Assembly: GCA_963668505.2 (NCBI GenBank)
Contig: CAXXWY010000026.1
Coordinates: 621 to 64,620 of the forward strand
DNA from: Dehalococcoidia bacterium
GTDB lineage: Bacteria; Chloroflexota; Dehalococcoidia; Lucifugimonadales; UBA3495
Length of the DNA stretch: 64,000 nucleotides
Reading direction: 5' to 3'
How positions within the stretch are numbered: the first letter of the stretch is position 1; every line of letters starts with the position of its first letter. The notes under the pieces were generated by a model. It was not told the origin of the DNA, did no database searches, and saw only the letters and a program-made list of their open reading frames with translations. Position numbers and translations under genes: made by a program. Below are positions 12,351-57,376 of the stretch, one piece after another.

Positions 12351-12352
12351 CG

Positions 12353-15520: not shown

Positions 15521-15821
15521 GAGACCTTTGCACAACGTCGTTTCTTCGCATGAAGACCATCGCATAGGCTGGGCCTAGGCTGGCCGTTCGCCCGTGTATC
15601 TTGGCTTTACCCGTTCGCCCTGAGGGAAATCGAAGGGCCTGCCCTTGTATCTTAAACAGGGACGTGACAGACCGCTTCGCCCCAGGTCTTTAAGACCGTA
15701 GCTCAGCAGGGTCGTCACGTCCAGCGCCCCTCGGAGCCCGAACAGTTGACTGGGCAATGAAGCCCGAATTAAGCAAGGATGGGCCAGAGGCAGGGAGAAT
15801 ATCTTGAAAGGAGGTAGATGA
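15521..15821 (+). ncRNA. candidate IS110 bridge (seeker) RNA / structured 5' leader
   Basis: Three-way junction. The outer 9-bp stem is 15660-15668 GGACGTGAC with 15714-15722 GTCACGTCC. The inner hairpins are AGACC/GGTCT (15669-15689) and GACC/GGTC (15694-15713). Near-repeat CCCGTGTATCTT (15589-15600) / CCCTTGTATCTT (15639-15650). Confidence 0.35.
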
Positions 15822-16769
<948 letters not shown>

Positions 16770-16820
16770 CTTTCAAGACAGTTGCTGAGCTTGTCGAAGG
16801 ACACCACCGCACCTCTCTCC

Positions 16821-17738: not shown

Positions 17739-17916
17739 GGCCAGACTCCTACCTGCAACTATGCCCGCAGCCCCAGTATAGACCAGCATCCCGCCTCCGG
17801 GGCCTCTATTCCCACCCGTAACGGATTTTGCTAAACTGGCCCGTGGCTCTCTCGTCCCACCTATTGCCGCGGGATTCTGAGGCCCCGGTTAGACAACACC
17901 GTTAAGGAGAAAGGCT

Positions 17917-18537: not shown

Positions 18538-18570
18538 GCTCCACCTCAATCGAGCCCTCGAGAGCAACAT

Positions 18571-18966
18571 TTGCAGGCAGACGAGGCAGTCGTCCAAGCG
18601 GTGAAAGAGGCCAACCAGGCGTTCTACGACGCCTTCGGCGCCCTGGACATCGACGCCATGGAGGCTGCCTGGGAACCCTCCGAGCGGGCCCTGTGCGTCC
18701 ATCCCGGCTGGCCTCCCTTGACCGGCTGGGAGCACATCCGGGAAAGCTGGCGGCGCATCTTCGACAACGCCACCCTGATGCACTTCAACGTCCAATACGT
18801 CAATGTAACGGTGCAGGAAGACTGCGGATGGGTCACCTGCGTCGAGAATATCTCCAGCGTTCTGCAGGGCCGCGCCGACAACTTCGGCGTGCTGGCCACC
18901 AACATCTTCGTCCGCACTCCCCAGGGATGGCGCATGGTCGCCCACCACGCCTCTCCCAACACATGA
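18571..18966 (+). CDS. SnoaL-like / NTF2-fold protein (DUF4440-like)
   Basis: 131 aa, N-terminus AVVQAVKEANQAFYDAFGALDIDAMEAAW, ending GWRMVAHHAS. Typical NTF2-like fold. TTG start. Confidence 0.7.
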   Translation: MQADEAVVQAVKEANQAFYDAFGALDIDAMEAAWEPSERALCVHPGWPPLTGWEHIRESWRRIFDNATLMHFNVQYVNVTVQEDCGWVTCVENISSVLQGRADNFGVLATNIFVRTPQGWRMVAHHASPNT

Positions 18967-18984
18967 CGGGCGCCGCCCCGCTTT

Positions 18985-19662
18985 GTGACAGCTAACATGT
19001 CTCCAGACTCTTCGGCTGACCGTAATCCGATGTTCAGCCCAGATGACTTTCAGCGCGTAGACGACGGCCTCGACAGCCTGTTCTACTCCTGGCCCCGCAA
19101 GGTGGTGCACATAGACGCGCAGGCCATCGAGGCCGTGGGACGGTTGTTCCGAGACCTGATCCCTCCAGGAGCGGTGGTCCTGGACCTGATGAGCAGTTGG
19201 CGCTCCCATTGGCCGGCGGGCCATCCCAAGGGCCGCATGGTGGGACTGGGGTTGAACGCCGAGGAGATGGTGGATAACCCGGACCTGGACGAATACGTGA
19301 TTCACGACCTCAACCGCGACCCGGCGCTGCCGTGTCAGGACGGCGAGTTCGACGCCGTGGTCTTGACCGTTTCGGCCCAATACCTGACCCGGCCTATTGA
19401 GATCTTCCGGCAGGTCAACCGGGTGCTGAAATCCGGCGGCATATTCATCGTCACCTTTTCCAACCGCATGTTCCCGACCAAGGCTGTGCGCATCTGGCGG
19501 GAGTCCACTGACCGCGGCCGCATCGATCTGGTGACCTCGTACTTCGAGGCCGCTGGCAACTTCCACGACATCCGCTCGGGCTTCGTCAACCCCGACGCCG
19601 GACCCTACGGCGACCCCCTCTTTGCAGTAATCGGCCGCAAGGCCTCATCCACAGCGGCATGA
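18985..19662 (+). CDS. class I SAM-dependent methyltransferase
   Basis: VVLDLMSSW (motif I-like), FDAVVLTVSAQYL and LKSGGIFIVTF. GTG at 18985 or in-frame ATG at 18997. Confidence 0.75.
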   Translation: MTANMSPDSSADRNPMFSPDDFQRVDDGLDSLFYSWPRKVVHIDAQAIEAVGRLFRDLIPPGAVVLDLMSSWRSHWPAGHPKGRMVGLGLNAEEMVDNPDLDEYVIHDLNRDPALPCQDGEFDAVVLTVSAQYLTRPIEIFRQVNRVLKSGGIFIVTFSNRMFPTKAVRIWRESTDRGRIDLVTSYFEAAGNFHDIRSGFVNPDAGPYGDPLFAVIGRKASSTAA

Positions 19663-19731
19663 TTCCGTTGGCATAAGCCAGCCCCGGTCTGTATACTCGG
19701 CGGCAAGGACTGGTGGATTAGTGGATTAAAC

Positions 19732-21420
19732 ATGGCGCGAACCTTCCGGCTGGCCCTGGCCCAGATCAACACCACGGTGGGGGACATACCGGGCAACGCG
19801 GCCAAGATTGTCGAGTACATGGATAAGGCGCGCTCCCTTCGCTGCGATCTGGTCGCCTTCCCCGAACTGGCCGTGACCGGCTACCCACCGGAGGACCTGG
19901 TTTTCCGATCTCACTTCGTCCAGGAGAACCTGGAGCGGACCCGTGAGATAGCCGCCGCTACCCAGGGCATCACCGCGGTCTACGGCTTCGTCGACGACAG
20001 CGGCGGCCTGCGCAACGCGGCCGCCATCGCCCACGACGGCAGGCTCGCCGGCGTCTACCATAAGAAGCGCCTGCCCAACTACGGCGTCTTCGACGAGGCC
20101 CGCTACTTCGCGTCCGGCCACGACTGCCCCGTCTATCGGCTTGGCGGCGTGCCCTTCGCCGTCAACGTCTGCGAGGACATCTGGTTCGAGGAGGACGGCG
20201 ACCCCCTGGTAACCCAGGGCCGCTTGGGAGCCAAGCTGGTGGTCACCATCAACGGCTCGCCCTACCACGCCGGCAAACTCAAGGCCACCCGGGAAAAGCT
20301 GGTGTCAGGCCTGGCTCGCAGGTACAACCTGCACCTGGCCTACGTGAACCTGGTCGGGGGGCAGGACGAGCTTGTCTTCGACGGCGCAAGCATGGTCTTC
20401 GGCCCCGACGGCAAGCCCGTCGTGCGGGGGAGCCAGTTCCAGGAAGAGATGATAGTGGTCGACATCGAATTGGAGGAGACCGCGGCCTCGGGCTTTGTTG
20501 AACTTAGCGGGGACACTTTGGAGGGTGCCAGGCCAGCCATTCCGCTCCGGCAGACCAAGACCTACGACGAGGTGGGCGAGGTCTACGCCGCCCTGGTTTT
20601 GGGCACCGGGGACTACGTGAGAAAGTGCGGCTTCACCAAGGCGTTGGTGGGCCTGTCCGGCGGCGTTGATTCCGCCCTGACCGCCGCCGTGGCCGCCGAC
20701 GCCCTGGGCCCGGACAACGTGGTTGGCATCACCATGCCCTCCCGCTACTCGTCGGAAGGCAGCTTCACCGATGCCCGTGACCTGGCCGCCAACCTGGGCA
20801 TCGGTCTCTGGAACGTACCCATAGAGCCGGCGCATCAGGCCTTTTCCGGCATGCTGGAGTCCTACTTCCAGGGCGCCGAGCCCAACGTGGCAGAGGAGAA
20901 CGTCCAAGCCCGGATACGGGGCAACGTGCTGATGACCGTCTCCAACAAGTTCGGGTGGATCGTCCTGACAACCGGCAACAAGAGCGAGATGGCCATGGGC
21001 TACGCCACCCTCTACGGCGACATGGCCGGGGGATTCGCCGTGCTCAAGGACGTGCCCAAGACCCTGGTTTACCGCTTGTGCGAGTGGCGCAACGGCAACG
21101 GCGGCTCCAAGCCGGCGATTCCCCAGGCGATCATCGACAAGCCCCCCACGGCTGAACTGAAGAACGACCAGTTGGACCAGGACACCCTGCCCCCCTACGA
21201 CCTGCTGGACCAGGTGGTCAAGGCCTACGTGGAGGACGACTGCAGCTACCAGGATATGGTGAGCAGGGACTTTGACCCCGAGGTGGTGCGCCAGGTGATA
21301 CGAGCCGTCGACCTGGCCGAGTACAAGCGGCGGCAGGCGCCGCCGGGGGTCAAGATTACGCCCAGGGCCTTCGGCAGGGACCGCCGCCTGCCCATAGTCA
21401 ACCGCTACCAGCAGCGCTGA
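19732..21420 (+). CDS. nadE: glutamine-dependent NAD+ synthetase (CN-hydrolase + NAD synthetase domains)
   Basis: N-terminal nitrilase-type domain (LVAFPELAVTGY, CEDIW) and C-terminal GLSGGVDSALTA PP-loop. Confidence 0.95.
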   Translation: MARTFRLALAQINTTVGDIPGNAAKIVEYMDKARSLRCDLVAFPELAVTGYPPEDLVFRSHFVQENLERTREIAAATQGITAVYGFVDDSGGLRNAAAIAHDGRLAGVYHKKRLPNYGVFDEARYFASGHDCPVYRLGGVPFAVNVCEDIWFEEDGDPLVTQGRLGAKLVVTINGSPYHAGKLKATREKLVSGLARRYNLHLAYVNLVGGQDELVFDGASMVFGPDGKPVVRGSQFQEEMIVVDIELEETAASGFVELSGDTLEGARPAIPLRQTKTYDEVGEVYAALVLGTGDYVRKCGFTKALVGLSGGVDSALTAAVAADALGPDNVVGITMPSRYSSEGSFTDARDLAANLGIGLWNVPIEPAHQAFSGMLESYFQGAEPNVAEENVQARIRGNVLMTVSNKFGWIVLTTGNKSEMAMGYATLYGDMAGGFAVLKDVPKTLVYRLCEWRNGNGGSKPAIPQAIIDKPPTAELKNDQLDQDTLPPYDLLDQVVKAYVEDDCSYQDMVSRDFDPEVVRQVIRAVDLAEYKRRQAPPGVKITPRAFGRDRRLPIVNRYQQR

Positions 21421-23011: not shown

Positions 23012-26000
23012 ATGACGGATAGCGGCGGGCCGGGCAATTGGCCGGGCGAGGGCGCGTCCAGGCACATCGACTACGACGACCCCAAGTATGAAAAGGCCGC
23101 GAGGGAAATACTACAGCGGCACGTCAGCTTTCAGGCCGAGGCGAACATCACCAGCGCGGTGCGGGACTTTCTCATTCTCACCGGCCTGGCCCGGAGCGAA
23201 GAAATAATCGAGGAAAACCCGCCTTCGGACGGCTCTCGTCGCGCCGTAGACCTGACTGCCCTGGACACCTTCATCGAGTTCAAGCGCAGGATCGGCACCG
23301 CCGCCAGCGGCGAACCCGACCCGGAAAACGTGCGGCAACTTGACGATTACCTGGCCCAGTCTGCGGCCCAGGGACGAGTACGCATGGGCGTCCTCACCGA
23401 CGGCAAGCGGTGGCTGCTGCGCTGGCCGGGAGCGGGGGAAGTACGTCTAACCCAACCCTACTTTTTTACCCTGGACAATGCGGAGAAGTGGCTCCCGCTA
23501 TACGAATGGCTGCGAGACACCGCCCTGGTGTCCCTGGAAGACGTCATCCCGGACAGGGACGGAATTGCGGCGCACTTCGGCCCCGACAGCCCGTCTTATC
23601 AACGGGACATCGCCGCCCTGAAGGACCTGTACCATCAGAACGCGGGACTGGAGACCATCCGGGTCAAGCGGCGGTTGTGGTACGACCTGCTGCGCACCGC
23701 CCTGGGTGAAGTCGCCTACAGCACCGAGGGGATGAGTCACCCGGTACGACGGGACACGGAGGAGATGGACGACCTGTTCGTCCGCCACACTTACCTTGGG
23801 GCGGTCACCGGCATGGTGGTGCAGGCGTCCTTCGGCATCGACATTCGACAACTGGCCGCCAACGACCCCGCCGACCTGCTCCAGGGGCGGAGGCTGACCC
23901 AAGATACGGGGCTTACAGGGGTGTTGGAATCAGACTTCTTCGCCTGGCCCAACGAGGTAGGCGGCGTACCGCTGCTGCAAACCCTGGCCCGCCGGGCGGC
24001 CCGGTTCAACTGGACCGAGACGCCGCCGGACACCGCCGCCGTTCTTTACCAGAGCGTCATCCCGCCGGAGGAGCGGCGTTCGCTGGGGGAATACTACACT
24101 CCCGCATGGCTGGCCCGGGCCATGGTCGGCGAATTGATAACCGACCCCCTGCGGCAGCGCGTCCTGGACCCGGCATGCGGCTCAGGAACATTTATAGCCG
24201 AAGCCGTAACCCATTTCATCCAGGCCTCCAAGAAGAGCGGCCTTCACCCCAAGCAGGTGTTGGACAGGCTGCGTATGTCCGTCACCGGCATCGACGTTCA
24301 CCCCGTCGCCGTCCACCTTGCCCGGTCTGCGTGGACACTGGCGGCCCGCCCGGCCATCAACGCCGCGGGCGCCGCCGGGTACAACGCATCTTTGTCCATC
24401 CCGGTGTACCTGGGAGACGCCCTGCAACTGCGTTATCGCACGGGAGACATGTTCGCCGAAAACGAAATCACCATCCGGACCAGCGACGACGAGAACACCG
24501 AATTGGTCTTTCCGGTCAGCCTGGTGGAGCGGGCCGAGGACTTCGACGCCCTGATGAGCGACGTTGCGGCCTATGTCGAGAGCGGCGAGGACCCATCCCT
24601 GGCATTGGCGGACAACCACATCAACGATCCCGGCGAGCGGGAGGTCATGGGAAAAACCATCGAGGCCTTGCAGCGTCTCCACCACCGGGGACGGGACCAC
24701 ATCTGGGCGTACTACACCCGCAACATGGTGCGGCCGGTAGTGTTGTCCCGCGCCAAGGTCGACGTGGTGATCGGAAACCCGCCCTGGATAAACTTCAACC
24801 AGACCGCTGACATCCTGAGGGACGCGTTGCAGGATATGAGCCGGAACCGCTACGGCATCTGGACCGGGGGCCGCTATGCCACCCACCAGGACGTGGCCGG
24901 GCTCTTCTTCGCCCGCAGCGTCGACCTGTACTTGAAAGATGGCGGCGTCATCGGCTTCGTCATGCCCCATAGCGCCTTGCAGTCCGGACAGCACTCCAAG
25001 TGGCGCACTGGCCAATGGCAGTCGCCGGCCAAGGGGCGGGGAAAGAGGAGAGCGCACGATTTCACATTGTCAGTCCAGTTCGATTACAAGACGGCCTGGG
25101 ACCTGGAGAAACTGGATCCCAACACCTTCTTCCCCATAGTTTCTTGCGTGGTGTTCGCACGCAGCACCGGACAAAGCGGAATCGCCGCGCCGCTGGCCGG
25201 AGTGGTAGAGAGGTGGCTGGGAAAAGCCGGGGCCGAAGACGTGAGGAGGCAGTTGACGGGTATTACCGACACTTCCATTACAGGCGATTCGCCTTACTAT
25301 AACCTTTCTCGTTTAGGAGCAATTCTTTATCCTCGCTGCTTGATTTTCGTCAATGAAACGGAAAACACCGCTATCGTACGGGCCGCGCAGACGGTCACCG
25401 TAAATCCACGACGAGGCAGCCAGGACAAAGCGCCGTGGAAGGACCTGGACCTGACCAAAATCACCGGCCAGACCATCGAGAGAGCGCACTTGTTTGATGT
25501 CCACTTGGGGGAAACGGTTGCACCCTACGTCACACTGGAACCCCTCAAGGCGCTGTTGCCCCTCAAGCAGGGCGACGCAGCCATACCCACTGATGACAAA
25601 GGCCCTGGCGGTATACGGCCAGGCGAACTGGAAAGACGGATGCGGAAACGCTGGAGGACCGTCAGCACTCTCTGGGACGAGCACAAAGCTCCTGTGAATA
25701 AGCTTGCTCTGTTGGGTCAGTTGAACTACTGGGGCCACTTACAGGCTCAACTGAAGTGGAGCCATCATCTCGGTGAGCGTGGGCCGCGGGTCGTATATAC
25801 CAAATCAGGTGAGCCAACCGCCGCTCTGATTCACGATGATCAGTCAATTATCGACCACAAACTCTTTTGGATACCCTGTAGGGATGTTGATGAAGCCAAC
25901 TACCTGTTGGCAATCATCAATAGCAATACGCTGTACCAAAGGGTAAAGCCGCTTATGCCCAAAGGCTTATTCGGAGCTCGAGATGTGCAAAAGCACCTGT

Positions 26001-40026: not shown

Positions 40027-40084
40027 GCCGTCGAAAGCCGGCGGGTATTATCGCATGATACCGACTTGAAACTGGTGTCCCTGC

Positions 40085-41227
40085 CTAGCCGGAAGCTGTG
40101 GCGGCGTCTATGACGCCCAGCAACTGCCTGGCTTCATACAGCCTGGGCCAGCTATCACGGTGAACGTCGACGACGCCTAAATCGGCAAGCCTGTCCAGAA
40201 TTCGCCTTGTCCCGGCGCTAGTAAGGCCCAGCAGACCAGCGGCCACGGGGACTGTCATAAGCGGCCTCTCAAACAACAGGTCAAGCAGTCTTAGCGTGTT
40301 CCCGGAATGATGCTGCAGGAGCGATCGGGTATCCTCATGCAACTTTCGCACACGGCGGATACGGAGCAAGGCGTCGTGGCTCTGCTCGGAGACCCCGCTA
40401 AGGAAGTAGACTAACCAGGGCGTCCAATTCCCGGTACGGGTGACTCCCTGCAATTGCGCATAATATTCGTCGCGGTTGTGCTCGAAGTAGGCGCTTAGAT
40501 AGAGCAGTGGCTGTGAAAGAATCCCCCTGGCGCAAAGAAACAGGGTGATTAACAACCGGCCTACCCGCCCGTTCCCGTCCAGGTAGGGATGGATGGCTTC
40601 GAACTGGTAATGCATCAACGCACATTGGACCAACGGCGGCAACCTGGAATCCGAGTTGACGAATCTTTCCCAGTCCTCCAGCAGTCCTCTGACTATCGAC
40701 GGCGGAGGGGGAACGTACTGGGCTTCGTGGATGGGAGTCCCCGGGGCGCCTATCCAATTCTGCGCCTCCCTTAATTCACCAGGACGCATTTCCGATCCCC
40801 GCACTCCCCTCATAAGCCCTGCATGCAATTCGTTGACCAACCGGAGGCAAATGGGCAACTCCTCGAGGAGTTCCAGGCCGCGCTCCAGCGCTCGAACGTA
40901 ATTGGAAACCTCGCCGACGTCGCCCACAGCCCGCTGTGTGGGTGAGACCTCGTGCAGGTACAAGTCTGTAAGCGACGCCTGCGTCCCTTCGATCTTTGAC
41001 GAAAGCACAGCCTCCCGGCGTACGAATGGTCGGATCAGGAGGTGGGGATTCGGCAGCGTTTCCCCGACTCCTGCCAGCGTTCCAACCGCCCTCGATGCTT
41101 CATCCAGGTGGTAGACTACATCTGGGCCTAAATTCAACCGATATGGAAGCGGGCTGGGGACGAACCCCCTGTGGCCGTCAATGATAGGGACCCATTCTCC
41201 GGCGGGGCCATTCGCTGGTTGAGTCAT
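40085..41227 (-). CDS. Fic family protein (class II, N-terminal inhibitory helix, C-terminal wHTH)
   Basis: Fic motif HPYLDGNGRVGRLL, inhibitory motif SSKIEG in the Fic_N region, and a C-terminal DNA-binding-like tail. Start at MTQPANG (ATG 41227). Confidence 0.9.
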   Translation of the reverse strand: MTQPANGPAGEWVPIIDGHRGFVPSPLPYRLNLGPDVVYHLDEASRAVGTLAGVGETLPNPHLLIRPFVRREAVLSSKIEGTQASLTDLYLHEVSPTQRAVGDVGEVSNYVRALERGLELLEELPICLRLVNELHAGLMRGVRGSEMRPGELREAQNWIGAPGTPIHEAQYVPPPPSIVRGLLEDWERFVNSDSRLPPLVQCALMHYQFEAIHPYLDGNGRVGRLLITLFLCARGILSQPLLYLSAYFEHNRDEYYAQLQGVTRTGNWTPWLVYFLSGVSEQSHDALLRIRRVRKLHEDTRSLLQHHSGNTLRLLDLLFERPLMTVPVAAGLLGLTSAGTRRILDRLADLGVVDVHRDSWPRLYEARQLLGVIDAATASG

Positions 41228-41499
41228 GGCAGGTTTGATACTCCTGTTGCACTTTGGCAACCATTTGATACTTATTGCTTAATTTGTTGCAATTATACCA
41301 GAAATATCAACTGGCGTATCAATTGTCTACATTAGGTAGCGCGCGGGCATTTACTTACGCTATATGGTGTTGCGGCCGTTCACCTGGGAAAAGCGCATGT
41401 AAAACGGCGGGACTTGTCGCGAGTGGATACGGGGATGGAGTTCCAAACAAAGTTTGACTGCCGCGGCGCAACTATCGATGATGTGAAAGCAGGCAAACC

Positions 41500-42492: not shown

Positions 42493-42563
42493 CCGCCCGC
42501 GGCGCTGAAATCCCGTTGATTACTGCTTTGTTCAAGGTTGTTCGAGGAAGCGCCACAACACGC

Positions 42564-43235
42564 TCATGTCCCGTGGGAAACAAGCCCCGTCAAGCCTCGC
42601 GCTGGCTCAAACACTTGCGCTCCCATATCTAACAGGTTCTCGTTGGCCGGGCTGTCAAGCGTGTGCAGAGGCTTGCCTGATTCAATGAGCTTGCGGGCGA
42701 ATTCCTCGGTCCTGCCGCCGGGGGCGGCGTGGGCTATGAAGACCCGGCTGGCCAGCGACGCCACCAGGTCGTTGCGCCGGGCTGCGAGTTGCGCCGTCGG
42801 GCGTCGGACAGCGGCTGGGAAGGGCGATAGGACCAGCAGGCGGCCGTTGTCCAGGGCGGGGCGCCAGCCGCGTGGGATGCGCATGTTGTCGACGCCTCGG
42901 GCCGGGCAGATGACGACGGGCTGATTGCCCCGCAGCAGCAGGCGCAGGCATTCGCGTTCCATGGGCGTCTGGAAGCCGCCGGTGACTGGAACGCCGGAGT
43001 CGCGCATGGCCCTGGCAATGTCGTAGGTCTTCAGGATGAGGTCGCCGGGGCAGCGATTGGAGCAGAACAGGGCCGTTAGCGGCTCGTCGAGCAGGCGCAG
43101 GTTGCCCAGATCGGCCGTCCTGGGCGGCAGATAAGCCGTGCTCCCGGTTTTTTCAGCCGCATGGCAGACCGGAGGGCCGGCGCCGGAAAATTTTAGATTC
43201 CCTACCATTTCATCCCATTTCCTACCATTTGGCAA
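42564..43235 (-). CDS. short DprA/Smf-like (SLOG superfamily Rossmann) protein
   Basis: LFCSNRCPGDLILKTYDIARAMRDSGVPVTGGFQTPMERECLRLLLRG..QPVVICPARG...LLVLSPFP...PT...AARRNDLVASLASRVFIAHAAPGGRT parallels the DprA core. The only in-frame ATGs (43235, 43208) lie inside the iteron-like box. Confidence 0.6.
   Translation of the reverse strand: MPNGRKWDEMVGNLKFSGAGPPVCHAAEKTGSTAYLPPRTADLGNLRLLDEPLTALFCSNRCPGDLILKTYDIARAMRDSGVPVTGGFQTPMERECLRLLLRGNQPVVICPARGVDNMRIPRGWRPALDNGRLLVLSPFPAAVRRPTAQLAARRNDLVASLASRVFIAHAAPGGRTEEFARKLIESGKPLHTLDSPANENLLDMGAQVFEPARGLTGLVSHGT
43186..43233 (-). repeat. iteron-like box, copy 3
   Basis: Minus strand: GCCAAATGGTAGGAAATGGGATGAAATGGTAGGGAATCTAAAATTTTC. Confidence 0.8.
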
Positions 43236-43286
43236 GCGTTGGGGGCCGGTTGGACTTGGCTTTGGCCCCGGAAGGGGACTGATGCT

Positions 43287-43388
43287 TTACATGGTAGGGG
43301 GTTGGGCGGGATTTTGAAAGCGGCAAATGTCAGTGGGGGTGTCCAACCTAGGCGATAGGTTCATGTCAAGGAGGAGCGTCGGCTTCAT
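43287..43388 (-). pseudogene. 5' remnant of a DUF5615 (Mut7-C/PIN-like) toxin gene
   Basis: The ATG overlaps the DUF433 stop (ATGA). The translation MKPTLLLDMNLSPRL matches the conserved DUF5615 N-terminus, then becomes unrelated and stops after 33 codons. Confidence 0.55.
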
Positions 43389-43615
43389 GGCGTGGAGAGG
43401 GGAACCTCACGTTCTTCAAGCCTCCAAGCGGCGTAGGCCAGGGATTGGTCGATGTCCTCCTGCTCAAGATACGGGTAAGCTTGGAGTATCTCTGCATGTG
43501 AGCGACCGGACGCCAGCAGGCCGACCACCGTCCCGACCGTTACGCGCATGCCGCGAACACACGCCTTACCCCCCATGACAGCGGGATCGATAGTAATTCT
43601 GTCGAGTGATTTCAT
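43385..43615 (-). CDS. DUF433 domain protein (antitoxin-like HTH)
   Basis: ITIDPAVMGGKACVRGMRVTV...ILQAYPYLEQEDIDQSLAYA is the canonical DUF433 pattern. Confidence 0.9.
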   Translation of the reverse strand: MKSLDRITIDPAVMGGKACVRGMRVTVGTVVGLLASGRSHAEILQAYPYLEQEDIDQSLAYAAWRLEEREVPLSTP

Positions 43616-43678
43616 TGTCTATCTCCTCCCATGCTCAGGCCTTCAAAACTTGCGGCCGTGCGCGCCGGTGTTCAAGGT

Positions 43679-43912
43679 CTAGCGGTCCCACGATTCCTTC
43701 TCTTCTTTCAGGTAGGCCGCTACGTCCTCCGCCGTCTTGAAGAGGCGATGCCCCCGCGCCTCAGCCAAGACGGCGACTGCGGACCGTCGTTCGGTAGACG
43801 AGGAGGGCGTCACCACCACGTCCACCGTCTGCCCCGCTTCCAATTCCGGGCTGGCGGACTCCACCCTGCCGCCGGGTTGTGCCGTTGTTCTGATATGCAA
43901 TTTCTTTTGCAT
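43679..43912 (-). CDS. small hypothetical protein (77 aa)
   Basis: The pattern ...GRVESASPELEAGQTVDVVV...GHRLFKTAEDVAAYLKEEKESWDR resembles a small protein family common in cyanobacterial and Chloroflexi TA-rich regions. Function unknown. Confidence 0.6.
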   Translation of the reverse strand: MQKKLHIRTTAQPGGRVESASPELEAGQTVDVVVTPSSSTERRSAVAVLAEARGHRLFKTAEDVAAYLKEEKESWDR

Positions 43913-44003
43913 TGTCAGTGCCCCCTTAACGTTCGACTATCCAGCCTCATGCGGCGCCGGGTGTTCGTGGTTAGTGGTGATGTTTGGCTGCTATTCAACG
44001 AGG

Positions 44004-47000
44004 TTAGAGGTGGAATTTTGCGATGATTTCTTCGAGTCCTGTTTTCGTTTTAGCGTCCAAGGGTGTTTGAAGCAGTTGGTCTATAACGGGTTTCGACCCG
44101 TGCCACATATAATGTAAGTCATCGGCTTCGCCAAGGCGGATTAGAAGTTTCGCCAATGCCTCTGGGTGCTTACCTGGTATGGCAGAGTCAGTGAGTCGAA
44201 GACTAGGCATAAGTCGTTGCAGGGGCTGAACAGGCATCTTTATTGCCAATTCAACCGCCTCCGGGTAGACCGCAGTTAGACTGAAAGTCCACTCGATCAT
44301 CGCCTCTGTTTCCTCTGCGTCCAGCGGCGCTGGTATGCCGTCGAGACGATTTTCCCAATATCCCCTCAGCCAGGTATTCCACCATTCCTTTTGCATGGGT
44401 TCGTCCAAGTACTGCAGGAAGTGCCGGATTTCCGTCGAAAATTTCCGCCGGACTTCTTGGCCGCTACTTGCCAGTAGTTTGGTAATCCACTGGTCGGTGG
44501 GACAGGAGACGAACACGGTGAGCATCCAAGTGTATCTTGTGATGAATCTGCATCTGGTTTGTGGGGTCATCCTGTCGTTGATGTGTTCGACTGCTTGCAA
44601 GAACGGCTCCTTCAGAAGTTCAGCAGCCCTAGCAGTGAAGTTGGACGAGTAAGTTATGCCATTCCATGCGCTCTCGAATTCTTCGTGGCTGTGATCCAAC
44701 AGAGGTATCAGGTTCAGCTTGCTCCACTCTTCATCTACAAAGGTTAGAAAGGGGATGTTTGATACGAGAATCACCCTGGCGAGTTTGCCGGGTAATTCCT
44801 GGTTTGCCATCATCCTTGCCAGCACATCCTGGTAGTCGTCTCCAAGCGTCGTGGGCGGCTGTTCCTGTTGTTGCCTCCATAAGGCAATACTTTGCAGCCA
44901 GAATTGAGCGAGGCGGCCTGAGGGACTGTTGATGGCTTCGGTGTACCAATCGACTTCTTCTTCAACCCCTCCAACGTATCGAGTCATTTGGCTTGGCTCG
45001 ACTTTTATTGCGTAGTCATGCAAATTGCCGGCGATGGTGTTGGCTCGGGCGATAAGTTCCGAAGTTTCTGGACCTGTAACTTTTTTGACAACTTCACATA
45101 GAGCGTTGGTTAGTTCATGAACGTGATCTTGGTATAGGTTATCGTCAGAAAGACGTTCCAGAACTTGACGAACGCAGTCTTGGTCTAACTCGGCAGCCCC
45201 CCAAGCTCTAATGAGGAATGGCCACAGGTCTACATCCCACAGACCTGCGCTCGCCATTTCGCTTGCCAGTTCAAGACCCCACTCGACATTTTTTTGTGCG
45301 GCCTCCCCAATAGCAGTTAGTAGCCCCGCTCTGTTGACAGGGTCGGAAGGCTGTGTCGATTGATACTCGACTAATTCCGCCAGCCATTCTCTTGCTGGCT
45401 TTCCCAATAATTCCTCAACCGTCCACGGACTCCGAACTCTCGCCCAAGTCTCCGTCCAAAACAGCATATCCGGACGTTCACTTTGGGAAAAATCCGGGTA
45501 CTGGACCAATATGGTCTCTAGGGCATGTTTAGCGAGTGGGCAATCAGGGGCAGCGTCGTTCAGCCATTTGAGCCATTCGAATTTGTGGAATGCTGTGAGG
45601 CTTTCTTTATCTGGATGGTCCTTTCTAGGCCATTGGTAGCTTAGCACTGATTCGATAACCCTTTCCCTCTGCTCCAAGGATGCTTCGGGATATACACTGG
45701 CGACAGCCCTGTAGATTTCATGCTTGGCAGGGAGTTCGTTCAAGTCGTAGTGTTCCAATAGCCAGGCGATTTTCTCGTCGGCGGAGAGATCATTCCGGCT
45801 CGGAAGGATGTGTACTGCCAGCCGGCGCAGCAGAGCTGATTTAGAGCGGCTGTAGCGTTCCGACCGTAGCTTGGCCGCATCGGGTTGGTTGGCAACCAGC
45901 CATTCAAGACAATCTCGTGCAATGTCGATAAGCGCGTCTATTCCTCTGGGGTGCCTGTCTTGCGCATGGGGTTCAATGGCAGATCGCCGGAAAGTGTCGG
46001 AATCTAGAAGACGTTCGCCTTCCCAAGCCATTATCAGAGAGTGACGCTCTTCCAACCGCCAGACGGTTTTATCGATCAGTGACTCGGCTATTTCCGGTAA
46101 ATTGGGTTTCAGGCATTGCTCCCACAAGGTTCGGATTTGATAGGTAGAGAGGTCCGCGTTGCGCCTGGCAAATCGCCGGCCAGGATGGCGACAGATCGCC
46201 GTCATTGTGTCGTAGATTTGCAACACGTTGACCAGTAATCCTGGGTTTGCACAATTTTCGGCGATTTTCCCCAACAACACATCATTGAAATTAGGCGGAG
46301 TAGCGCTGATCAGGAGGTGTATCCACCGGGAAAGGGTCTTCGCATCTGCTAGAGGTTCGACATTTACGAGCATCCGTTGCGCAATCATGTTCCACAAATC
46401 GACATTGAGTCTTGAGCCGTGCCGCCATATAACTGAAAACAGCACGTCAGGTTTCTCGATGGCGAAACGACTTGGCAACCAGCCAGCCAGCCACTTCTCT
46501 CCTTCTGTAAGGTCGCCGTAGGAAAACAGGGCATCCAGGTAACCGCGAGTGTCCAGCCAATCAATCCATTCCGGTGATTTCGCGGCATCTGTGAAGAAAC
46601 GGGTATATACGGGGTTTGTGAGGGCGTGTTCGATTACACCGGCGGATTCTTCTTCCAAAGGCGGCGGCCCACTTGCTATTTTGGTGATTTCCTGGCGCCA
46701 ACCCAGTGTGCCGCGCCGCCTGTAATCAGCAAGACTTGATATTGCCCGATCCAGGCCGGTGTAGTCGCCGCCCACTTGTGGAAACGGTATGGGTTCAATG
46801 CCCAAATTACGCCAACGCTCCTGCTCGTCGCTCAGGCCGCCAATGAGGGCGTAGCGGCGGTCGTCTTCACCCTTGGGCAGGGATGGAGTCAAATAAGTCA
46901 TGATGGTGTCATTGTGGCTGTAGCCTACGAACAGCAAGGTGTGCTCGGTGAATAGGTCAACCAGAAAGCGCCTCGCCCAGCCGTCGGCTTCTGTTAGGTA

Positions 47001-47510
47001 AGCACGTCCAAAGTCCTGGCTGGTAAGCACCATTTCCTCAGGTTGGCTAACTGACCCATGAATATGGACAATACCCTTAAATCGCCTGCCATAGGGGAGC
47101 GCCGGGGCCATGAACACGCTTGTTGTGGTTTCGAACAACTCTTGGGCGGCTTGATCAAGCAGTAGGTCGAAATTAGTTGTGACGATGCGGACATCTTCGG
47201 GTATAGTGAACAAACGCAGTAAGCTACGGTGAAGATCCGTAGGTTCGGGATTGTTCATTTGCAACACGTCCGCAGCGCGTCGATGCACGTCCGTGCCAGC
47301 TACTTTCAAGCGGTCCAAAAATCGGTCTTCTGTCTCCCCCTCACCGATTGCCTGGCCGGTCCCCACGGCAATTTGTTGGGCTAGGCCTGAGAAGTCTGGC
47401 ATGTTTGCCGGGGCACCCATGGAGACGCCTGCTCCGGCAAAAATCACCAGCCGTCCATCACGGAGGGCGTTCAGCAACGGATCCGGGAAATTAACGCCTT
47501 TGATTATCAT
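44004..47510 (-). CDS. SIR2-domain protein with a large helical C-terminal region (defense-associated sirtuin, DSR1/DSR2-like architecture)
   Basis: The N-terminal ~280 aa carry RLVIFAGAGVS, VRIVTTNFD, GIVHIHGS and LLFVGYSHND (SIR2_2 pattern with catalytic Asn and His). The remaining ~880 aa are W/L/E-rich and helical, with no motif recognised. AT-rich (48% in the 60-nt spot count). Confidence 0.85.
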   Translation of the reverse strand: MIIKGVNFPDPLLNALRDGRLVIFAGAGVSMGAPANMPDFSGLAQQIAVGTGQAIGEGETEDRFLDRLKVAGTDVHRRAADVLQMNNPEPTDLHRSLLRLFTIPEDVRIVTTNFDLLLDQAAQELFETTTSVFMAPALPYGRRFKGIVHIHGSVSQPEEMVLTSQDFGRAYLTEADGWARRFLVDLFTEHTLLFVGYSHNDTIMTYLTPSLPKGEDDRRYALIGGLSDEQERWRNLGIEPIPFPQVGGDYTGLDRAISSLADYRRRGTLGWRQEITKIASGPPPLEEESAGVIEHALTNPVYTRFFTDAAKSPEWIDWLDTRGYLDALFSYGDLTEGEKWLAGWLPSRFAIEKPDVLFSVIWRHGSRLNVDLWNMIAQRMLVNVEPLADAKTLSRWIHLLISATPPNFNDVLLGKIAENCANPGLLVNVLQIYDTMTAICRHPGRRFARRNADLSTYQIRTLWEQCLKPNLPEIAESLIDKTVWRLEERHSLIMAWEGERLLDSDTFRRSAIEPHAQDRHPRGIDALIDIARDCLEWLVANQPDAAKLRSERYSRSKSALLRRLAVHILPSRNDLSADEKIAWLLEHYDLNELPAKHEIYRAVASVYPEASLEQRERVIESVLSYQWPRKDHPDKESLTAFHKFEWLKWLNDAAPDCPLAKHALETILVQYPDFSQSERPDMLFWTETWARVRSPWTVEELLGKPAREWLAELVEYQSTQPSDPVNRAGLLTAIGEAAQKNVEWGLELASEMASAGLWDVDLWPFLIRAWGAAELDQDCVRQVLERLSDDNLYQDHVHELTNALCEVVKKVTGPETSELIARANTIAGNLHDYAIKVEPSQMTRYVGGVEEEVDWYTEAINSPSGRLAQFWLQSIALWRQQQEQPPTTLGDDYQDVLARMMANQELPGKLARVILVSNIPFLTFVDEEWSKLNLIPLLDHSHEEFESAWNGITYSSNFTARAAELLKEPFLQAVEHINDRMTPQTRCRFITRYTWMLTVFVSCPTDQWITKLLASSGQEVRRKFSTEIRHFLQYLDEPMQKEWWNTWLRGYWENRLDGIPAPLDAEETEAMIEWTFSLTAVYPEAVELAIKMPVQPLQRLMPSLRLTDSAIPGKHPEALAKLLIRLGEADDLHYMWHGSKPVIDQLLQTPLDAKTKTGLEEIIAKFHL

Positions 47511-48099
47511 ATACAGCTACCGCCTCTTAGCAGTTCACCCCTCCCGCTGAACACCCAGTTGCCCCCCACCTTTCCAGGCATGCTTTCCACCGCCGTACAC
47601 TTGCTCCAGTCCGTAATACGGTCACCTCCCGTTCGATTGCCGTTTGTCCTTCCGTAGGCATGCGCCCGTTGAAGGCGCCACCGCCTCCCGCACGTGCCAC
47701 CCTGCCGCGTTATATTTCTCTTATGCGGCTAATTGGTCTCTTGGCATATTCTAATAGAGGCCTTTTGTGGAAACAATCGAAGATGTGCTGGCCGATGGGA
47801 GTGGGGCCTGGCACCATGTGTCCTATGACTTCACAACGTAGCCCGTTCCCTCTAGCGCAGGGGGTTCCCGGTTCTTGAGCGACCCATTGGTGCCATCGGC
47901 AATCTTGTCCGCCAGGGGGACCCTTTCCCAGAGGTCTTCTACAGGGCAGTATCCAGCCGAGGGTAGCGTGTCCTTGTCCATCCCGTTCAAGGCCCCACCA
48001 GGAGCCCCGGGCTTCGCGGTTTACGGAGTTGACCGGGGAGTTGCCAATAGAGGAAATTTAGAGACCGCAGCCAGTCGAAGGCCAAGAAATGAGCGGCAA

Positions 48100-48190
48100 T
48101 GGCGGAGAGGGCGGGATTCGAACCCGCGAGAAGCTGTTGACCTCTACGCGATTTCCAGTCGCGCCCGTTCGGCCGCTCCGGCACCTCTCC
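48100..48190 (-). tRNA. tRNA-Ser (anticodon GGA), CCA encoded
   Basis: The reverse complement folds as a cloverleaf. Acceptor stem GGAGAGG/CCTCTCC, anticodon stem CGCGA/TCGCG with loop CTGGAAA, a long variable arm, T arm GCGGG-TTCGAAT-CCCGC, discriminator G plus CCA. Confidence 0.95.
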
Positions 48191-48331
48191 AGAACAGCGC
48201 AGCGTCCACAGCCCGGCGTTAGCGGCGCATCTTAGCCAAGGGGGGGTGGCTGCAGGCTGGCCGGCGTCATTATATTCAATGCCCGTTGGGACTGTCCACC
48301 GCACGGCTTTCATTTGACGCCTGCGGTGACC

Positions 48332-53740: not shown

Positions 53741-56700
53741 CTAGTCCGCGTATGGGCCGCCGTGCAGCCGCCGATACACTTCCAGGAAGGCATCTACTCT
53801 CTCAGGAGGCGTGTTTTCGAGCAAGGTCTGGTAGAACACCTCTTCAACCCGACGGAGCTCGTTTTCGTCCTTGAAAAAGTTGCGTTCCTCCCCTTCTACA
53901 ACGACGGTGTGGTCTTGGTCATGGAATTCCAAGTACAATGCCCGCATTGTTGCCGACAGCGCGTCCTCGCCCACCGCTTCGTACAGTTCCAGCAGGAAGT
54001 ACGCTCCAAGTACGTAGTTGCACTCAAGCGGAGCACGGGGGTCTTGGAATTCCCTTTCATTCAACTCGTGGATGTTTCTTATTCCTTGTTTGAAGCAGCC
54101 CGCCTCGACATCCCGTCTGAGGTCGCTCCTTTGATCTTCGAGGCTCACCAGACCGGCCCTGTCGGTGGTATACAACCGCATGAAATCGGCCCCGCCTTCA
54201 GCAATCCAACGTGGTCCGAAATCAAAGTAGTAGTGGGCTACTTCGTGATATATGGTCTCCCGCGAAATTGGATGGGGCTCGTATCGTGTAACATAGAAAA
54301 AGCCGGGCCAGTGCTCACCGGCCCAGTAATCCCCGCCGATGGGGACTATTAGGATAACGTCCGTCGCGGGGAAGGGTTCGCCCATAAACCCCTCGGTGGC
54401 TCGTACTGCGTCTTCAATCATTGCCGTCAAATCTTCGCCGGGAGAAAAGGGTTCAGATTGGACGGCCCACAAGTTGATGTCGCCCGCCAGGGGTAGTGAC
54501 ACTGCCGACCTCTGGACGAAAGTGGCATTGAGAAAGTCGCCGTACATCGACTCGTTGTTAAGTGTGCTCTTCACGTACCCCAGTACGGCCATGCGGGCCA
54601 TTGATTCATAGTCGGCTACCCGGTCCAACCATGTCCTCGCCATCTCCGGGTCGCTCCACAATAGTCCAAGCACCCCCGAATCAACCTCGGTAATGCCGTC
54701 CGCTACCCAAGGGAGAGCGGCAACCTGCTGGCCTAAAGCAAGGTCCGTGCCCGCAAGCTCCCGCAAGAAATAAAGCCCTAGCTCCTCCGTTATGGTAATG
54801 CCGTCTGCGAGCCAAGGGAGAGCGGCAACCTGTTGGGCTAGGGCAAGGTCTGCGTCCACCAGGTTCCGAAAGCTTGAAATCACCCTGTACTCACTTACGG
54901 TAACGGCGTCTGCATACCAGGGGAAGCCTGTTATCCGCAGAGCGAGCTCCACGTCTCGGTGCCCGAGCGCCGACGAATGCGCAATCGCCCATCGCTCATT
55001 TACAGTAATGCCGTCGGCTATCCAAGGGAGCGCAAACACGCGGCGGGCGAGCGCCGCATCAATAGGGAAAAGATAGTCCACCCTATCAATGTAGGTAAGC
55101 CCCCCCAATAAATCAATCGTGCCCACCTCCACTTCGCCGATGCCGTCGGCTACCCACGGTAGACGGGCGAGAAAATCCCCGGCCTCGGGGTTTTGAAGAT
55201 AAATAATCAGGATTTCGCTCCCGGCCGAGACATGGTATTCATCGGGAGGGTCGTCGAACCAAGGGATGATGTCGCTCAGATGCCTCTCCGCCCTTTCGCG
55301 TAAGGCGGGCGCAGGGTCTGGTGTCGGCGTAAGACTGACCTCGATGCCCCCTACATCCTCACCGTCTAAGGTCACTTCAAGCGCCTGCCCGCGCTCGGTC
55401 ACTGTCCCTCCTTCCCCGTCATACCACCCCACCGAGTGCCAGCCGTCGCCGTCCTTCGTTGCCCAAATCTGCAGGACATAGCCGCCCCTCGGCGCTTGTA
55501 TCTCGAAAGCTCCGTCGGGTTCAGCTTCCACCCAATATTCCTGGTCGTATTGGCTCCACGCCGAAACCGCTACCCCCGCTGCTGTATGCCTTACTACGCC
55601 ACTTAAGGTCACCCCCATAGAGGTCGGAACTGGCGTTGGAGTAACTGTGGGAGCAGGCGTAGGGGTCGCCGTGGGTGTTGGCGTGGGCGTAGGTTCTGGC
55701 GTCGGAGCCGGGGGCAGTGTGGGCATAGGCGTAGGCGTGAGTGTAGAAACCTGGGTTGGGGCTACTGTTGGCGTAGCCGTCGGAGTGGGAGTAGGCGCCG
55801 GGCCGTCCTGGCGCAGGCGGAGCATGAGCTTGTCCCCGGCCTGCCACGGCTGGGATGCTACGCTCCAGGTCAACGTGTTGCCTGAAACCGTGGCCGCGCT
55901 CCAATCCAGAGAGTGTATTACCGTTCCGTCCAGGGTGATGAAGTCGAGGGTGTGGCCCGACAGGGACGTGGGGGCGCTCAGGGTCAGCGTCGCCGAGCCG
56001 CTCTCCCACTTCAGTGACTGGAGCTCCGTGCTCACGTCGTCGAACGTGAATGCCTTGGGCTTCAGCACGCCGTTGGAAGCGTCCACTCCCACGGCGGAGC
56101 CGATGGCCACCGGGTCGAACAAGGCTTCATGCACCGTGCCCGAAGGCGCAGTGACGGTAACCGTCCAAGCCGAGTAGCTATCTGTTGGCTTGAAGTTGCA
56201 CGGGAAGTAGTAATGGTGCTGTGCGATATAATCAACGCTGTACGAGCCTCCGGGCAATGGCCGCTCGGTGAAAAGGCCAGCGTAATAGCCGTTTAAGGAG
56301 GACTTGTCGTTGTCGATTATCACGGCCTCGAATAAACCTGCATCGGCGCCGCGCAGCCACCACCGGTTATACTGCGGCTCCCTGTAATGGTGGTCATATC
56401 TAAAGACCTCTGCGCCGGCCGCTAAGCCGGAGGCGAGCGTCTTAGCCATTTGGTACGGTGCTAGGTCATGCGCGCGAACGGTGCGCTCACGTAGAATCCT
56501 ACTGCTAACGCAGTCTTTGAAGCCCGCGGTTCCCTCCCCAGCCTTGAGTTCGGCCTTTAGTGCCGCGATCTGGGACTTTAGCGCCGCCAGGGTAATGGTC
56601 GGAGGCGGCGTCTTGGCTCCGTTTGTGACAAACTCGGTGGATGGGCTGGCTGCGCTTGCGCCTCCGCTGGCATTTTGGGCTGGCAGCCAGGCCCGGCTCA

Positions 56701-57376
56701 GATTGTCGATGGTATAGTTCCAGGGCGATCCGGCGGTGTCGGACGTGATGAACTCGGCGGTCCTGGTGGAAGAGGTTCCGGTTGCGCCCGATGCAGCAGA
56801 CGTCGTCTGGCTCAAGTCAACGAATAGAATCGCCTGCCGATTGTCCCAGGTGGTGTTACGCGTCGATGCAGTGTGTTTTGCATAACTAAGAGCCCCGTTC
56901 CTAGTGTCTTCGGTAAAGTTGTTTCGGACCACCACCACGATTTCGTTGGGCCCGCTGCCCTCAAGATATTCGTGGACGGTGAACCTGAGTTCATGGATGG
57001 CCCGGTATAGTGTCTCTGTGCCTGAAACAGTCTCCACCGTCGGTGTCAAGGACACAAAGGTCGCCCGCACGACGACCGTGGAGTCAGAATCCAATGCGTT
57101 AAATATCTGTTCCTCCAATGAGGGGGCGACATACAACTCCGGGGGGCCGCCGTGATGGTCGTACTCGCTTTCCGAGTCTGGGGTGGGTGAATCCGTTGCT
57201 GCCGGGGTTGGCTGCGAATCAGGTTGAACTGTTGTAGGTGTTGGCTCAGGACTGGGTTGCTGCGTCGCGCCGGGGTTTGGCTGGGCGGAGTTGCACGCCG
57301 ATAGAAAAGCTATGGCTAGGCACAGCGTCAGGACAGTGGCCCCAAGGCGTCTCATTAGGCTGGGGGTTGCGGTCAT
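53741..57376 (-). CDS. secreted lipoprotein with a C-terminal gluzincin-type metallopeptidase domain
   Basis: Lipobox LSAC after a hydrophobic signal. Pro/Thr-rich linkers. Five LPW[IVL]ADGI[TG] repeats. YHEVAHYY (HExxH) followed by WIAEGGADF. Confidence 0.75.
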   Translation of the reverse strand: MTATPSLMRRLGATVLTLCLAIAFLSACNSAQPNPGATQQPSPEPTPTTVQPDSQPTPAATDSPTPDSESEYDHHGGPPELYVAPSLEEQIFNALDSDSTVVVRATFVSLTPTVETVSGTETLYRAIHELRFTVHEYLEGSGPNEIVVVVRNNFTEDTRNGALSYAKHTASTRNTTWDNRQAILFVDLSQTTSAASGATGTSSTRTAEFITSDTAGSPWNYTIDNLSRAWLPAQNASGGASAASPSTEFVTNGAKTPPPTITLAALKSQIAALKAELKAGEGTAGFKDCVSSRILRERTVRAHDLAPYQMAKTLASGLAAGAEVFRYDHHYREPQYNRWWLRGADAGLFEAVIIDNDKSSLNGYYAGLFTERPLPGGSYSVDYIAQHHYYFPCNFKPTDSYSAWTVTVTAPSGTVHEALFDPVAIGSAVGVDASNGVLKPKAFTFDDVSTELQSLKWESGSATLTLSAPTSLSGHTLDFITLDGTVIHSLDWSAATVSGNTLTWSVASQPWQAGDKLMLRLRQDGPAPTPTPTATPTVAPTQVSTLTPTPMPTLPPAPTPEPTPTPTPTATPTPAPTVTPTPVPTSMGVTLSGVVRHTAAGVAVSAWSQYDQEYWVEAEPDGAFEIQAPRGGYVLQIWATKDGDGWHSVGWYDGEGGTVTERGQALEVTLDGEDVGGIEVSLTPTPDPAPALRERAERHLSDIIPWFDDPPDEYHVSAGSEILIIYLQNPEAGDFLARLPWVADGIGEVEVGTIDLLGGLTYIDRVDYLFPIDAALARRVFALPWIADGITVNERWAIAHSSALGHRDVELALRITGFPWYADAVTVSEYRVISSFRNLVDADLALAQQVAALPWLADGITITEELGLYFLRELAGTDLALGQQVAALPWVADGITEVDSGVLGLLWSDPEMARTWLDRVADYESMARMAVLGYVKSTLNNESMYGDFLNATFVQRSAVSLPLAGDINLWAVQSEPFSPGEDLTAMIEDAVRATEGFMGEPFPATDVILIVPIGGDYWAGEHWPGFFYVTRYEPHPISRETIYHEVAHYYFDFGPRWIAEGGADFMRLYTTDRAGLVSLEDQRSDLRRDVEAGCFKQGIRNIHELNEREFQDPRAPLECNYVLGAYFLLELYEAVGEDALSATMRALYLEFHDQDHTVVVEGEERNFFKDENELRRVEEVFYQTLLENTPPERVDAFLEVYRRLHGGPYAD

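Follow-up and report, generated by a model that had tools for sequence, protein, structure and literature searches.

Dsr1, or defence-associated sirtuin 1, is said to go back to Gao et al. 2020. In Bacillus subtilis, DSR1 functions as a single gene and depletes NAD+ upon infection by phi29, a transient depletion under which the culture does not collapse (bioRxiv 10.1101/2021.12.14.472415). The C-terminus of Dsr1 is homologous to the tetratricopeptide repeat (TPR)-type sensor of the STAND family Avs7, and models of the Dsr1 sensor show a bent, bilobed helical-repeat domain; the sensors of Escherichia coli Dsr1 (EcDsr1) and of Avs7 are both triggered by the phage major capsid protein (MCP), and the triggers reported for the various sensor families are many different phage proteins (Lee et al. 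2026, preprint, PMC12803255). DSR2 is reported to sense the tail tube protein. We report here on a gene found in a 64,000-nt stretch of DNA of a Dehalococcoidia bacterium (contig CAXXWY010000026.1, positions 621-64,620, assembly GCA_963668505.2), the whole of which is called the window below. Most likely this gene is a divergent member of the Dsr1 family, acting as a single-protein anti-phage system that depletes NAD+, and it was acquired horizontally into a defence hotspot bounded by a tRNA-Ser gene. The gene, its parts and its upstream region are:

44004..47510, minus strand: Dsr1-family gene with ATG start and stop codon, coding for 1168 aa; candidate for a single-gene anti-phage NADase
46671..47510, minus strand: SIR2_2 (predicted NADase) domain, residues ~1-280; Pfam SIR2_2, alpha/beta fold in the AlphaFold2 (AF2) model
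47172-47174, minus strand: codon of Asn113, aligned with N112 of Bacillus cereus ThsA (BcThsA)
47058-47060, minus strand: codon of His151, aligned with BcThsA H152
46011..46670, minus strand: helical middle region, residues ~281-500; Trp-rich, poorest coverage by the Dsr1 hidden Markov models (HMMs), all-helical in AF2
44007..46010, minus strand: sensor region at the C-terminus (residues ~501-1168), an alpha-solenoid with homology to the sensor of Dsr1
44226-44498, minus strand: Pfam DUF4020 match, residues 1005-1095; E 1e-6, above the gathering score of the model
47511..48099, minus strand: upstream intergenic region, 589 bp, between the ATG of the Dsr1-family gene and tRNA-Ser

Relationship to Dsr1 and to other SIR2 defence proteins

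An earlier note on this DNA, made from the letters alone, had proposed a DSR-like NADase candidate with ~880 unassigned C-terminal residues, whose sensing part could be new. The family was borne out by PADLOC, NCBIfam and hhalign; the novelty of the sensor was not. The best match was Dsr1 in both PADLOC (PDLC04167, E 3.6e-64) and NCBIfam (NF041818, E 8.4e-72, 242.4 bits). Searched alone against these models, the C-terminal 868 aa aligned colinearly with profile positions 609-1223 of 1263 in NF041818 (E 1.9e-27), and with positions 583-1222 of 1248 in PDLC04167 (E 2e-23). The C-terminus is not unassigned, then: the Dsr1 HMMs cover its residues ~500-1150, and DUF4020 lies at residues 1005-1095. 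No known non-defence domain was matched by this part of the protein.

As a reference we used WP_053264524.1, a protein named Dsr1 by PGAP, whose gene adjoins restriction genes on an E. coli plasmid. BLASTP against it showed the SIR2 domains to be 34% identical (E 1e-29), and residues 511-1009 to be 22% identical to its residues 619-1104 (E 3e-14). When a profile made from 79 homologues was compared to it by hhalign, 1054 columns were aligned, over positions 4-1220 of 1263, with a probability of 100% and an E value of 2.7e-41. Taken together, the HMM, BLASTP and hhalign matches mean that homology to Dsr1 extends over the entire protein and takes in the sensor, and that its C-terminus corresponds along its length to the C-terminal sensor of Dsr1. 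As judged from these alignments, we assign the protein to the Dsr1 family, broadly defined, where it is a divergent member within a clade that combines SIR2_2 and DUF4020.

Several observations weigh against this reading. The score of 242.4 bits does not reach the NF041818 equivalog cut-off of 1400; the protein therefore falls in a divergent SIR2_2+DUF4020 clade, outside the curated Dsr1 equivalogs, and PGAP would name it just 'SIR2 family protein'. The overall identity to E. coli Dsr1 is only ~24%, so that a common trigger specificity is not to be assumed, and E. coli Dsr1 has no Pfam match to DUF4020, which again puts the 1168-aa protein in a separate clade. HMMER matches to the Dsr1 models leave residues ~330-500 uncovered; unlike HMMER, hhalign does align the helical middle region (~281-500) with E. 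coli Dsr1. In the PDB copy searched, no structure of Dsr1 or Avs7 was found with whose bilobed sensor the AF2 model could be matched. Finally, neither an integrase nor an attachment-site repeat was found (see below) that would account for the exchange of the island.

At 22% sensor identity, a different trigger is a serious possibility. The protein would then keep the same architecture and still deplete NAD+, responding to something other than MCP (tail tube, portal or replication protein) or being activated in another way; we regard this as possible, if on the unlikely side. The failed equivalog cut-off (242 vs 1400 bits) and the missing DUF4020 match in E. coli Dsr1 point in the same direction as the ~22% identity of the sensors. 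Precedents are provided by DSR2, of the same overall layout and reported to be a tail tube sensor, and by the diversity of phage-protein triggers that Lee et al. find across sensor families (PMC12803255). Against these stand the colinearity with the Dsr1 sensor over ~650 residues and the conservation of the sensor across phyla, each segment being 41-50% identical to the window residues, which would fit a conserved target such as MCP.

Placed beside the described systems, the protein of the window resembles Dsr1 most. Both are encoded by a single gene (~1200 aa in Dsr1) and both start with SIR2_2 and the same TTNFD and HG motifs; the long helical C-termini are colinear over ~650 residues, and the proteins correspond end to end by profile. 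Both are also located in defence islands, and here a relative is phage-borne. The differences are a length ~95 aa shorter, the presence of DUF4020, and hosts that are Dehalococcoidia and other uncultured phyla. With DSR2 of B. subtilis it has in common the layout of a SIR2 domain followed by an alpha-solenoid, NAD+ depletion being the presumed output here. The likeness in sequence is limited to the SIR2 domain (PADLOC Dsr2 E 1e-6, residues 56-171; NCBIfam NF041819 24.6 bits vs 1400; PDB profile E 0.036), which places it outside DSR2; the DSR2 sensor, with its tail-tube trigger, belongs to another family.

The SIR2_2 domain could be aligned over ~200 residues with ThsA of Thoeris, the catalytic N and H being conserved. 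No SLOG or TIR match was obtained in the protein or in its Pfam- and PADLOC-scanned neighbours at 40-51 kb, so it does not qualify as ThsA, and while ThsA is activated by glycocyclic ADP-ribose (gcADPR), a built-in protein sensor would be the activator here. The link to Avs7 is the Dsr1-Avs7 sensor homology of the preprint, this protein being homologous to the Dsr1 sensor; the STAND NTPase module is absent, and the effector is SIR2 instead of the Avs7 effectors. Membership of SIR2-HerA or SIR2-pAgo is not indicated, as no HerA, AAA or PIWI match was present in the scanned open reading frames (ORFs) of 37-57 kb. Avs5 (SIR2-STAND) does not fit either: the protein is all-helical after SIR2 in the AF2 model, with no central NTPase. 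More generally, an Avs-type STAND protein is excluded because the 1168 aa contain no Walker A motif and the Pfam scan found no NTPase domain in them.

Catalytic residues, predicted fold and proposed mechanism

Pfam SIR2_2 covers residues 108-241 with an E value of 1.8e-22. The four motifs on which the earlier proposal was built, LVIFAGAGVS (21-30), VTTNFD (110-115), VHIHGS (148-153) and LLFVGYSHND (192-201), were all found, in the order claimed; VTTNFD is the same in E. coli Dsr1, and VHIHGS aligns with its LHG in BLASTP. Aligned by HMMER with SIR2 NADases of solved structure, N113 falls on N112 of BcThsA and H151 on H152, which we take to be the catalytic residues of that enzyme, so the Asn and His do lie where they had been said to lie. 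The same two positions are those changed in a deposited SIR2 double mutant (N to A and H to A, 9v12 vs 9v0g). Among the aligned homologues, G26-A27-G28, N113 and H151 are invariant in 79 of 79.

The AF2 model, built on the alignment of the 79 homologues, has a mean predicted local distance difference test (pLDDT) of 86 and a predicted template modelling (TM) score (pTM) of 0.69. It consists of an alpha/beta SIR2 domain followed by ~890 residues of nearly pure helix, an all-alpha solenoid, in which residues ~281-500 are all-helical as well, with a pLDDT mostly above 85. A Foldseek search of the PDB placed the DSR2 cryo-EM structures at the top (E 3e-10, probability 1.0, full-length, TM only 0.20-0.25), then ThsA, then generic HEAT and karyopherin solenoids (TM ~0.2). 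As far as such a model can tell, the HEAT/karyopherin matches reflect a fold class, not homology. Sequence and profile searches of the PDB gave matches confined to SIR2 domains.

The reading frame itself is intact. It begins with ATG and encodes the 1168 aa noted earlier, and it is not a chance reading frame, because more than 120 full-length homologues exist, at 44-67% identity. A Shine-Dalgarno-like motif, AAGAGG, is read directly at 47523-47528, 12 nt 5′ of the ATG. A scan for terminators and for promoters, the latter covering sigma-70 consensus sites only, yielded nothing above shuffled expectation on the strand of the gene, and DNA alignment of the upstream intergenic region (47511..48099) with the syntenic locus of a related contig (L099, described below) revealed no similarity. 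The absence of a clear upstream promoter in that scan, and an adjacent DUF433 gene deprived of its partner, are what one might expect of an inactive relic, a passenger in decay within tRNA-linked junk DNA and beside an orphaned antitoxin. We consider this extremely unlikely: no part of the ORF is missing, its alignment with homologues of 1160-1179 aa covers 100% of its length, every invariant residue of the family is kept, N113 and H151 included, and the Shine-Dalgarno-like motif stands ahead of the ATG.

By analogy with the described members of the family, a functional Dsr1-family protein would be expected to work as follows. In uninfected cells of this host, the N-terminal SIR2_2 domain would be an NAD+ glycohydrolase (NADase) held inactive, and the ~890-aa helical region, chiefly the alpha-solenoid of residues ~500-1168, would be the sensor. 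Upon infection, the sensor would bind a conserved structural protein of the phage, most likely the major capsid protein if E. coli Dsr1 is a guide, and this binding might either release the inhibition of SIR2 or drive SIR2 assembly. The SIR2 domain would then cleave NAD+ into ADP-ribose and nicotinamide, and the loss of NAD+ would starve phage replication.

Spread of the clade and neighbourhoods of its members

More than 2600 relatives came out of a word-indexed search. Among the best 120, which are 44-67% identical, most are full length, and SIR2_2 and DUF4020 occur together in nearly all. The sensor alone was also searched by phmmer, exhaustively, against 1.84 billion cluster representatives: at E<=1e-3 it matched 1956 clusters, and with the limit at E<=1e-30 there were 745 (50%-identity clusters). 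In the top 150 matches the sensor begins at ~residue 300 of a protein of ~1170 aa, or the match is an N-terminally truncated gene call; the shorter matches are such truncated calls, starting inside the SIR2 domain. Effector swapping on this sensor was looked for and not seen: the top 150 sensor-only matches all have the same architecture, and the association of this sensor with SIR2 is thus a firm one within the clade. No sequence identical to the Dsr1-like protein of the window is on record, nor to its signal peptidase and Rieske proteins. A literature search returned no paper on DUF4020 and none on SIR2 defence systems of sponge symbionts, and a source-given name was present for 0 of 10 homologues held by NCBI.

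Relatives are encoded in 455 stretches of a one-genome-per-species data set, and the loci of the best 80 (L001-L080) were surveyed. The hosts of these 80 are Dehalococcoidia/SAR202, Latescibacterota, Poribacteria, Ca. Synechococcus spongiarum, Acidobacteriota, Gemmatimonadota, Rhodothermales and several proteobacterial classes. Identities are similar across phyla, at 40-47%, which points to horizontal transfer. Many of the taxa and bin names are apparently typical of sponge microbiomes, suggesting that the gene passed between phyla in a shared habitat, itself read from the record titles alone.

The composition of the gene is foreign. At 52.6% GC, with a GC content at third codon positions (GC3) of 56%, it contrasts with 61.7% GC in the rest of the window and with a GC3 of ~80% in housekeeping neighbours; the AT-richness noted earlier is thus real, although smaller than the 48 vs 65% that had been given. 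The same holds for homologous genes, whose GC content is lower than that of the 20-kb flanks at 54 of the 57 loci, the mean difference being 5.3 points. At the DNA level, identity to the homologue of locus L001 is 76.6% over 44000-47517, and in the closest Dsr1-like loci similarity is confined to the ORF. Since it ends at the ORF boundaries, the exchanged unit is essentially a single gene. A relative was also found on a phage: the IMG/VR contig UViG_3300025728_000347 (L088, 7860-11504) encodes, in the nin region of a lambdoid phage, a 1214-aa protein of 35% identity, with the O/P replication genes on one side and NinB, Q, endolysin and small terminase on the other. The family thus also travels on temperate phages. 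We conclude that horizontal transfer brought the gene of the window, as one ORF, into a defence-gene hotspot.

Around the 80 homologues, none of the housekeeping neighbours of the window recurs, so that neither synteny nor a conserved partner gene was seen, and no window neighbour of any kind recurs in more than 5 of the 80 loci, as is expected of Dsr1, a single-gene system. Five close homologues stand beside differing gene sets. Among the neighbours of homologues are a type ISP restriction enzyme with Abi_2, Cas9-Cas1-Cas2, a NACHT protein with a CBASS pair, and also HigB, a DNA methylase and a transposase. The survey that the earlier note had called for thus showed variable, defence-rich neighbourhoods and no housekeeping synteny.

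These neighbourhoods bear on the idea of a sirtuin without a defence role, such as an NAD+-dependent deacylase, an ADP-ribosyltransferase or a regulator of host or symbiosis functions, whose helical region would be a scaffold for partners. Alpha-solenoids are indeed generic protein-binding scaffolds, karyopherin and HEAT proteins are among the Foldseek matches, and the frequency of the clade in metagenome-assembled genomes (MAGs) of apparent sponge symbionts might reflect a niche-specific role. The SIR2_2 domain, however, resembles those of the defence NADases ThsA, Dsr1 and KomC, not those of classical sirtuins, and the patchy cross-phylum distribution, low GC, variable position, defence neighbours and carriage by a phage are hallmarks of defence genes, which makes a non-defence function highly improbable.

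In four islands around the closest homologues (L081, L083, L084 and L085) we observed recurring modules of unknown kind, namely DUF6932 with a ~300-aa ORF, DUF7689 beside a type ISP-like enzyme, and small Asp_protease_2 proteins; this points to related island scaffolds in these genomes.

The tRNA-Ser-bounded island and its genes

The Dsr1-family gene of the window lies in a region delimited as follows, together with three other genes of the same strand; the Fic gene listed last is outside this region:

42493..48099, strand not applicable: variable region of 5.6 kb, from the 2-hydroxyacid dehydrogenase stop codon to tRNA-Ser, by DNA alignment
48100..48190, minus strand: tRNA-Ser(GGA), by ARAGORN and Rfam; its 3′ end is the right edge of the variable region
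42564..43235, minus strand: small DprA-like protein (SMF/DprA Rossmann-type); co-located cargo
43385..43615, minus strand: orphan DUF433 antitoxin-type gene (toxin-antitoxin remnant); Pfam DUF433 E 2.5e-24
43679..43912, minus strand: orf77, 77 aa, 91 bp downstream of the Dsr1-family gene
40085..41260, minus strand: SoFic-type Fic protein, 391 aa; full-length PADLOC SoFic match, E 5e-114, 379 bits, Pfam Fic_N and Fic

The edges, and the best evidence on genomic context, come from two related contigs, L098 and L099, whose 2-hydroxyacid dehydrogenases (2Hacid_dh) are 86-89% identical to that of the window. In L099 the backbone is complete (IspD-IspF-CysRS-FAD oxidase-2Hacid_dh ... tRNA-Ser-Rieske-signal peptidase-DUF1932); in L098 it is common up to 2Hacid_dh, after which the cargo leaves the retrieved locus before the far side is reached. 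The left edge of the island falls directly after the 2Hacid_dh stop codon (42492), and on the right, DNA similarity to L099 resumes at 48101, exactly at the 3′ end of tRNA-Ser (48100/48101). This tRNA, predicted by ARAGORN and Rfam, is 589 bp upstream of the start codon, in agreement with the ~590 bp first estimated.

At this backbone site the cargo differs. In the window it consists of the DprA/PsyrA-like gene, DUF433, orf77 and the Dsr1-family gene. In L099, the interval from 2Hacid_dh to the tRNA (11343-16487) contains a CapP-like M78 peptidase/helix-turn-helix (HTH) protein, MazG/MazG_C, a DCD-like protein and HMUDK_hel; PADLOC recognised the CapP-like protein only and did not classify the module as defence, and it may be an unclassified nucleotide-targeting defence system. 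In L098, 2Hacid_dh is followed (11122-20738) by a type I restriction-modification (R-M) system, with two embedded ThsB-like TIR proteins and a DUF433 gene. We searched for an attachment (att) site, and found no direct repeat of the tRNA-Ser 3′ end with up to 3 mismatches, and no repeats in 39-49.5 kb beyond chance. With neither such a repeat nor an integrase, a classical integrative element is not supported. Adjacency to a tRNA is not a trait of the family either, as the 80 homologue loci contain only 8 tRNAs. A near-consensus sigma-70-like promoter (TGGACA, 18-nt spacer, TATAAT, 11 of 12 positions) was seen upstream of tRNA-Ser, at 48269-48298 on the minus strand, and is conserved in L099.

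The four genes of the island are all on the minus strand, separated by gaps of 91, 63 and 149 bp, and could in principle form one multi-gene system, in which for example the DprA-like protein would bind an NAD+-derived nucleotide. Its fold type, that of DprA, is akin to the SLOG domain, which in ThsA binds an NAD+-derived nucleotide. Relatives of the DprA-like gene were also found near Dsr1-like genes in two loci (L024 and L042). Two of the 80 homologue loci is, however, a low count, and it is 1 of 80 for DUF433; because co-occurrence is limited to 1-2 of the 80 loci, an operon with the DprA-like gene, DUF433 and orf77 was rejected as the preferred reading. The ends of DNA similarity with the closest homologues at the ORF boundaries, and a GC3 of 76% for the DprA-like gene and orf77 and of 62% for DUF433, vs 56% for the Dsr1-family gene, argue in the same sense, as do DprA-like homologues in other islands with no SIR2 gene at all. 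DSR1, finally, works as a single gene (bioRxiv 10.1101/2021.12.14.472415). We thus hold a multi-gene system to be very unlikely, and keep the single-gene Dsr1-family reading.

The DprA-like protein matches Pfam DNA_processg_A (E 4.6e-4, below the cut-off) and, partially, PADLOC PsyrA (E 1e-11); no PsyrT-like helicase was found among the scanned ORFs near its gene. Its family is very widespread, with more than 1140 homologues of ~200 aa, many of them 75-85% identical. One homologue (P0419) is fused to a PIN domain, and another lies in a different defence island (L100) with PLD-helicase, Eco57I-type methylase, PIN, Vsr and Dcm, and AddAB-like genes. It may be an uncharacterised defence-island gene. 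As for DUF433, a 92%-identical copy in locus L029 is followed by an overlapping 122-aa ORF, the pair being just upstream of another Dsr1-like gene; this partner ORF is missing in the window, and the toxin-antitoxin debris mentioned in the earlier note was therefore recognised as an orphan DUF433. Neither Pfam nor PADLOC matched orf77, and the 80 loci of homologues yielded no relative of it.

A separate single-gene defence candidate, SoFic, is encoded 2.7 kb from the Dsr1-family gene. It is carried by an insertion of ~1.4 kb (~40034-41450) between the FAD oxidase and 2Hacid_dh genes that is absent from L098 and L099. Fic relatives are also found near Dsr1-like genes in L011, L023, L025, L037 and L038.

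Elsewhere in the window, a 1211-aa ORF (53741-57376, minus strand) has no Pfam or PADLOC match and a GC3 of 67%, whereas that of housekeeping neighbours is ~80%. L076 encodes a relative, 34% identical over 473 aa, at a distance of ~8-10 kb from another Dsr1-like gene, and the 1211-aa ORF may likewise be foreign or have to do with defence. Patches of low GC at window positions 1-2000, 6001-8000 and 25001-26000 (49-55% vs ~62% elsewhere) may be other acquired segments.

What was already known is the Dsr1 defence and the type of its sensor; what is new is a member of a divergent, so far uncharacterised clade, and no new sensor type or mechanism is revealed. It is doubtful, though conceivable, that the SIR2_2+DUF4020 clade is a functionally distinct branch of the Dsr1 superfamily, with a trigger or an activation mode of its own. 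If so, this would be a branch spread across phyla within sponge-type consortia (Dehalococcoidia/SAR202, Poribacteria, Latescibacterota, Ca. Synechococcus spongiarum), and its trigger would point to the poorly known phages of these uncultured lineages. In either case the protein is a divergent test case for how far MCP sensing by Dsr1/Avs7-type sensors reaches. The hotspot, clearly delimited by tRNA-Ser, has contents that differ between related genomes (a Dsr1-like gene vs type I R-M with TIR proteins vs a CapP-like/MazG/DCD module), and it could be mined for further defence genes, such as the DprA-like gene or the L099 cargo. If our reading of the gene is right, single-protein defence of the Dsr1 type, by NAD+ depletion, would extend to Dehalococcoidia and to other uncultured, often apparently sponge-associated lineages.

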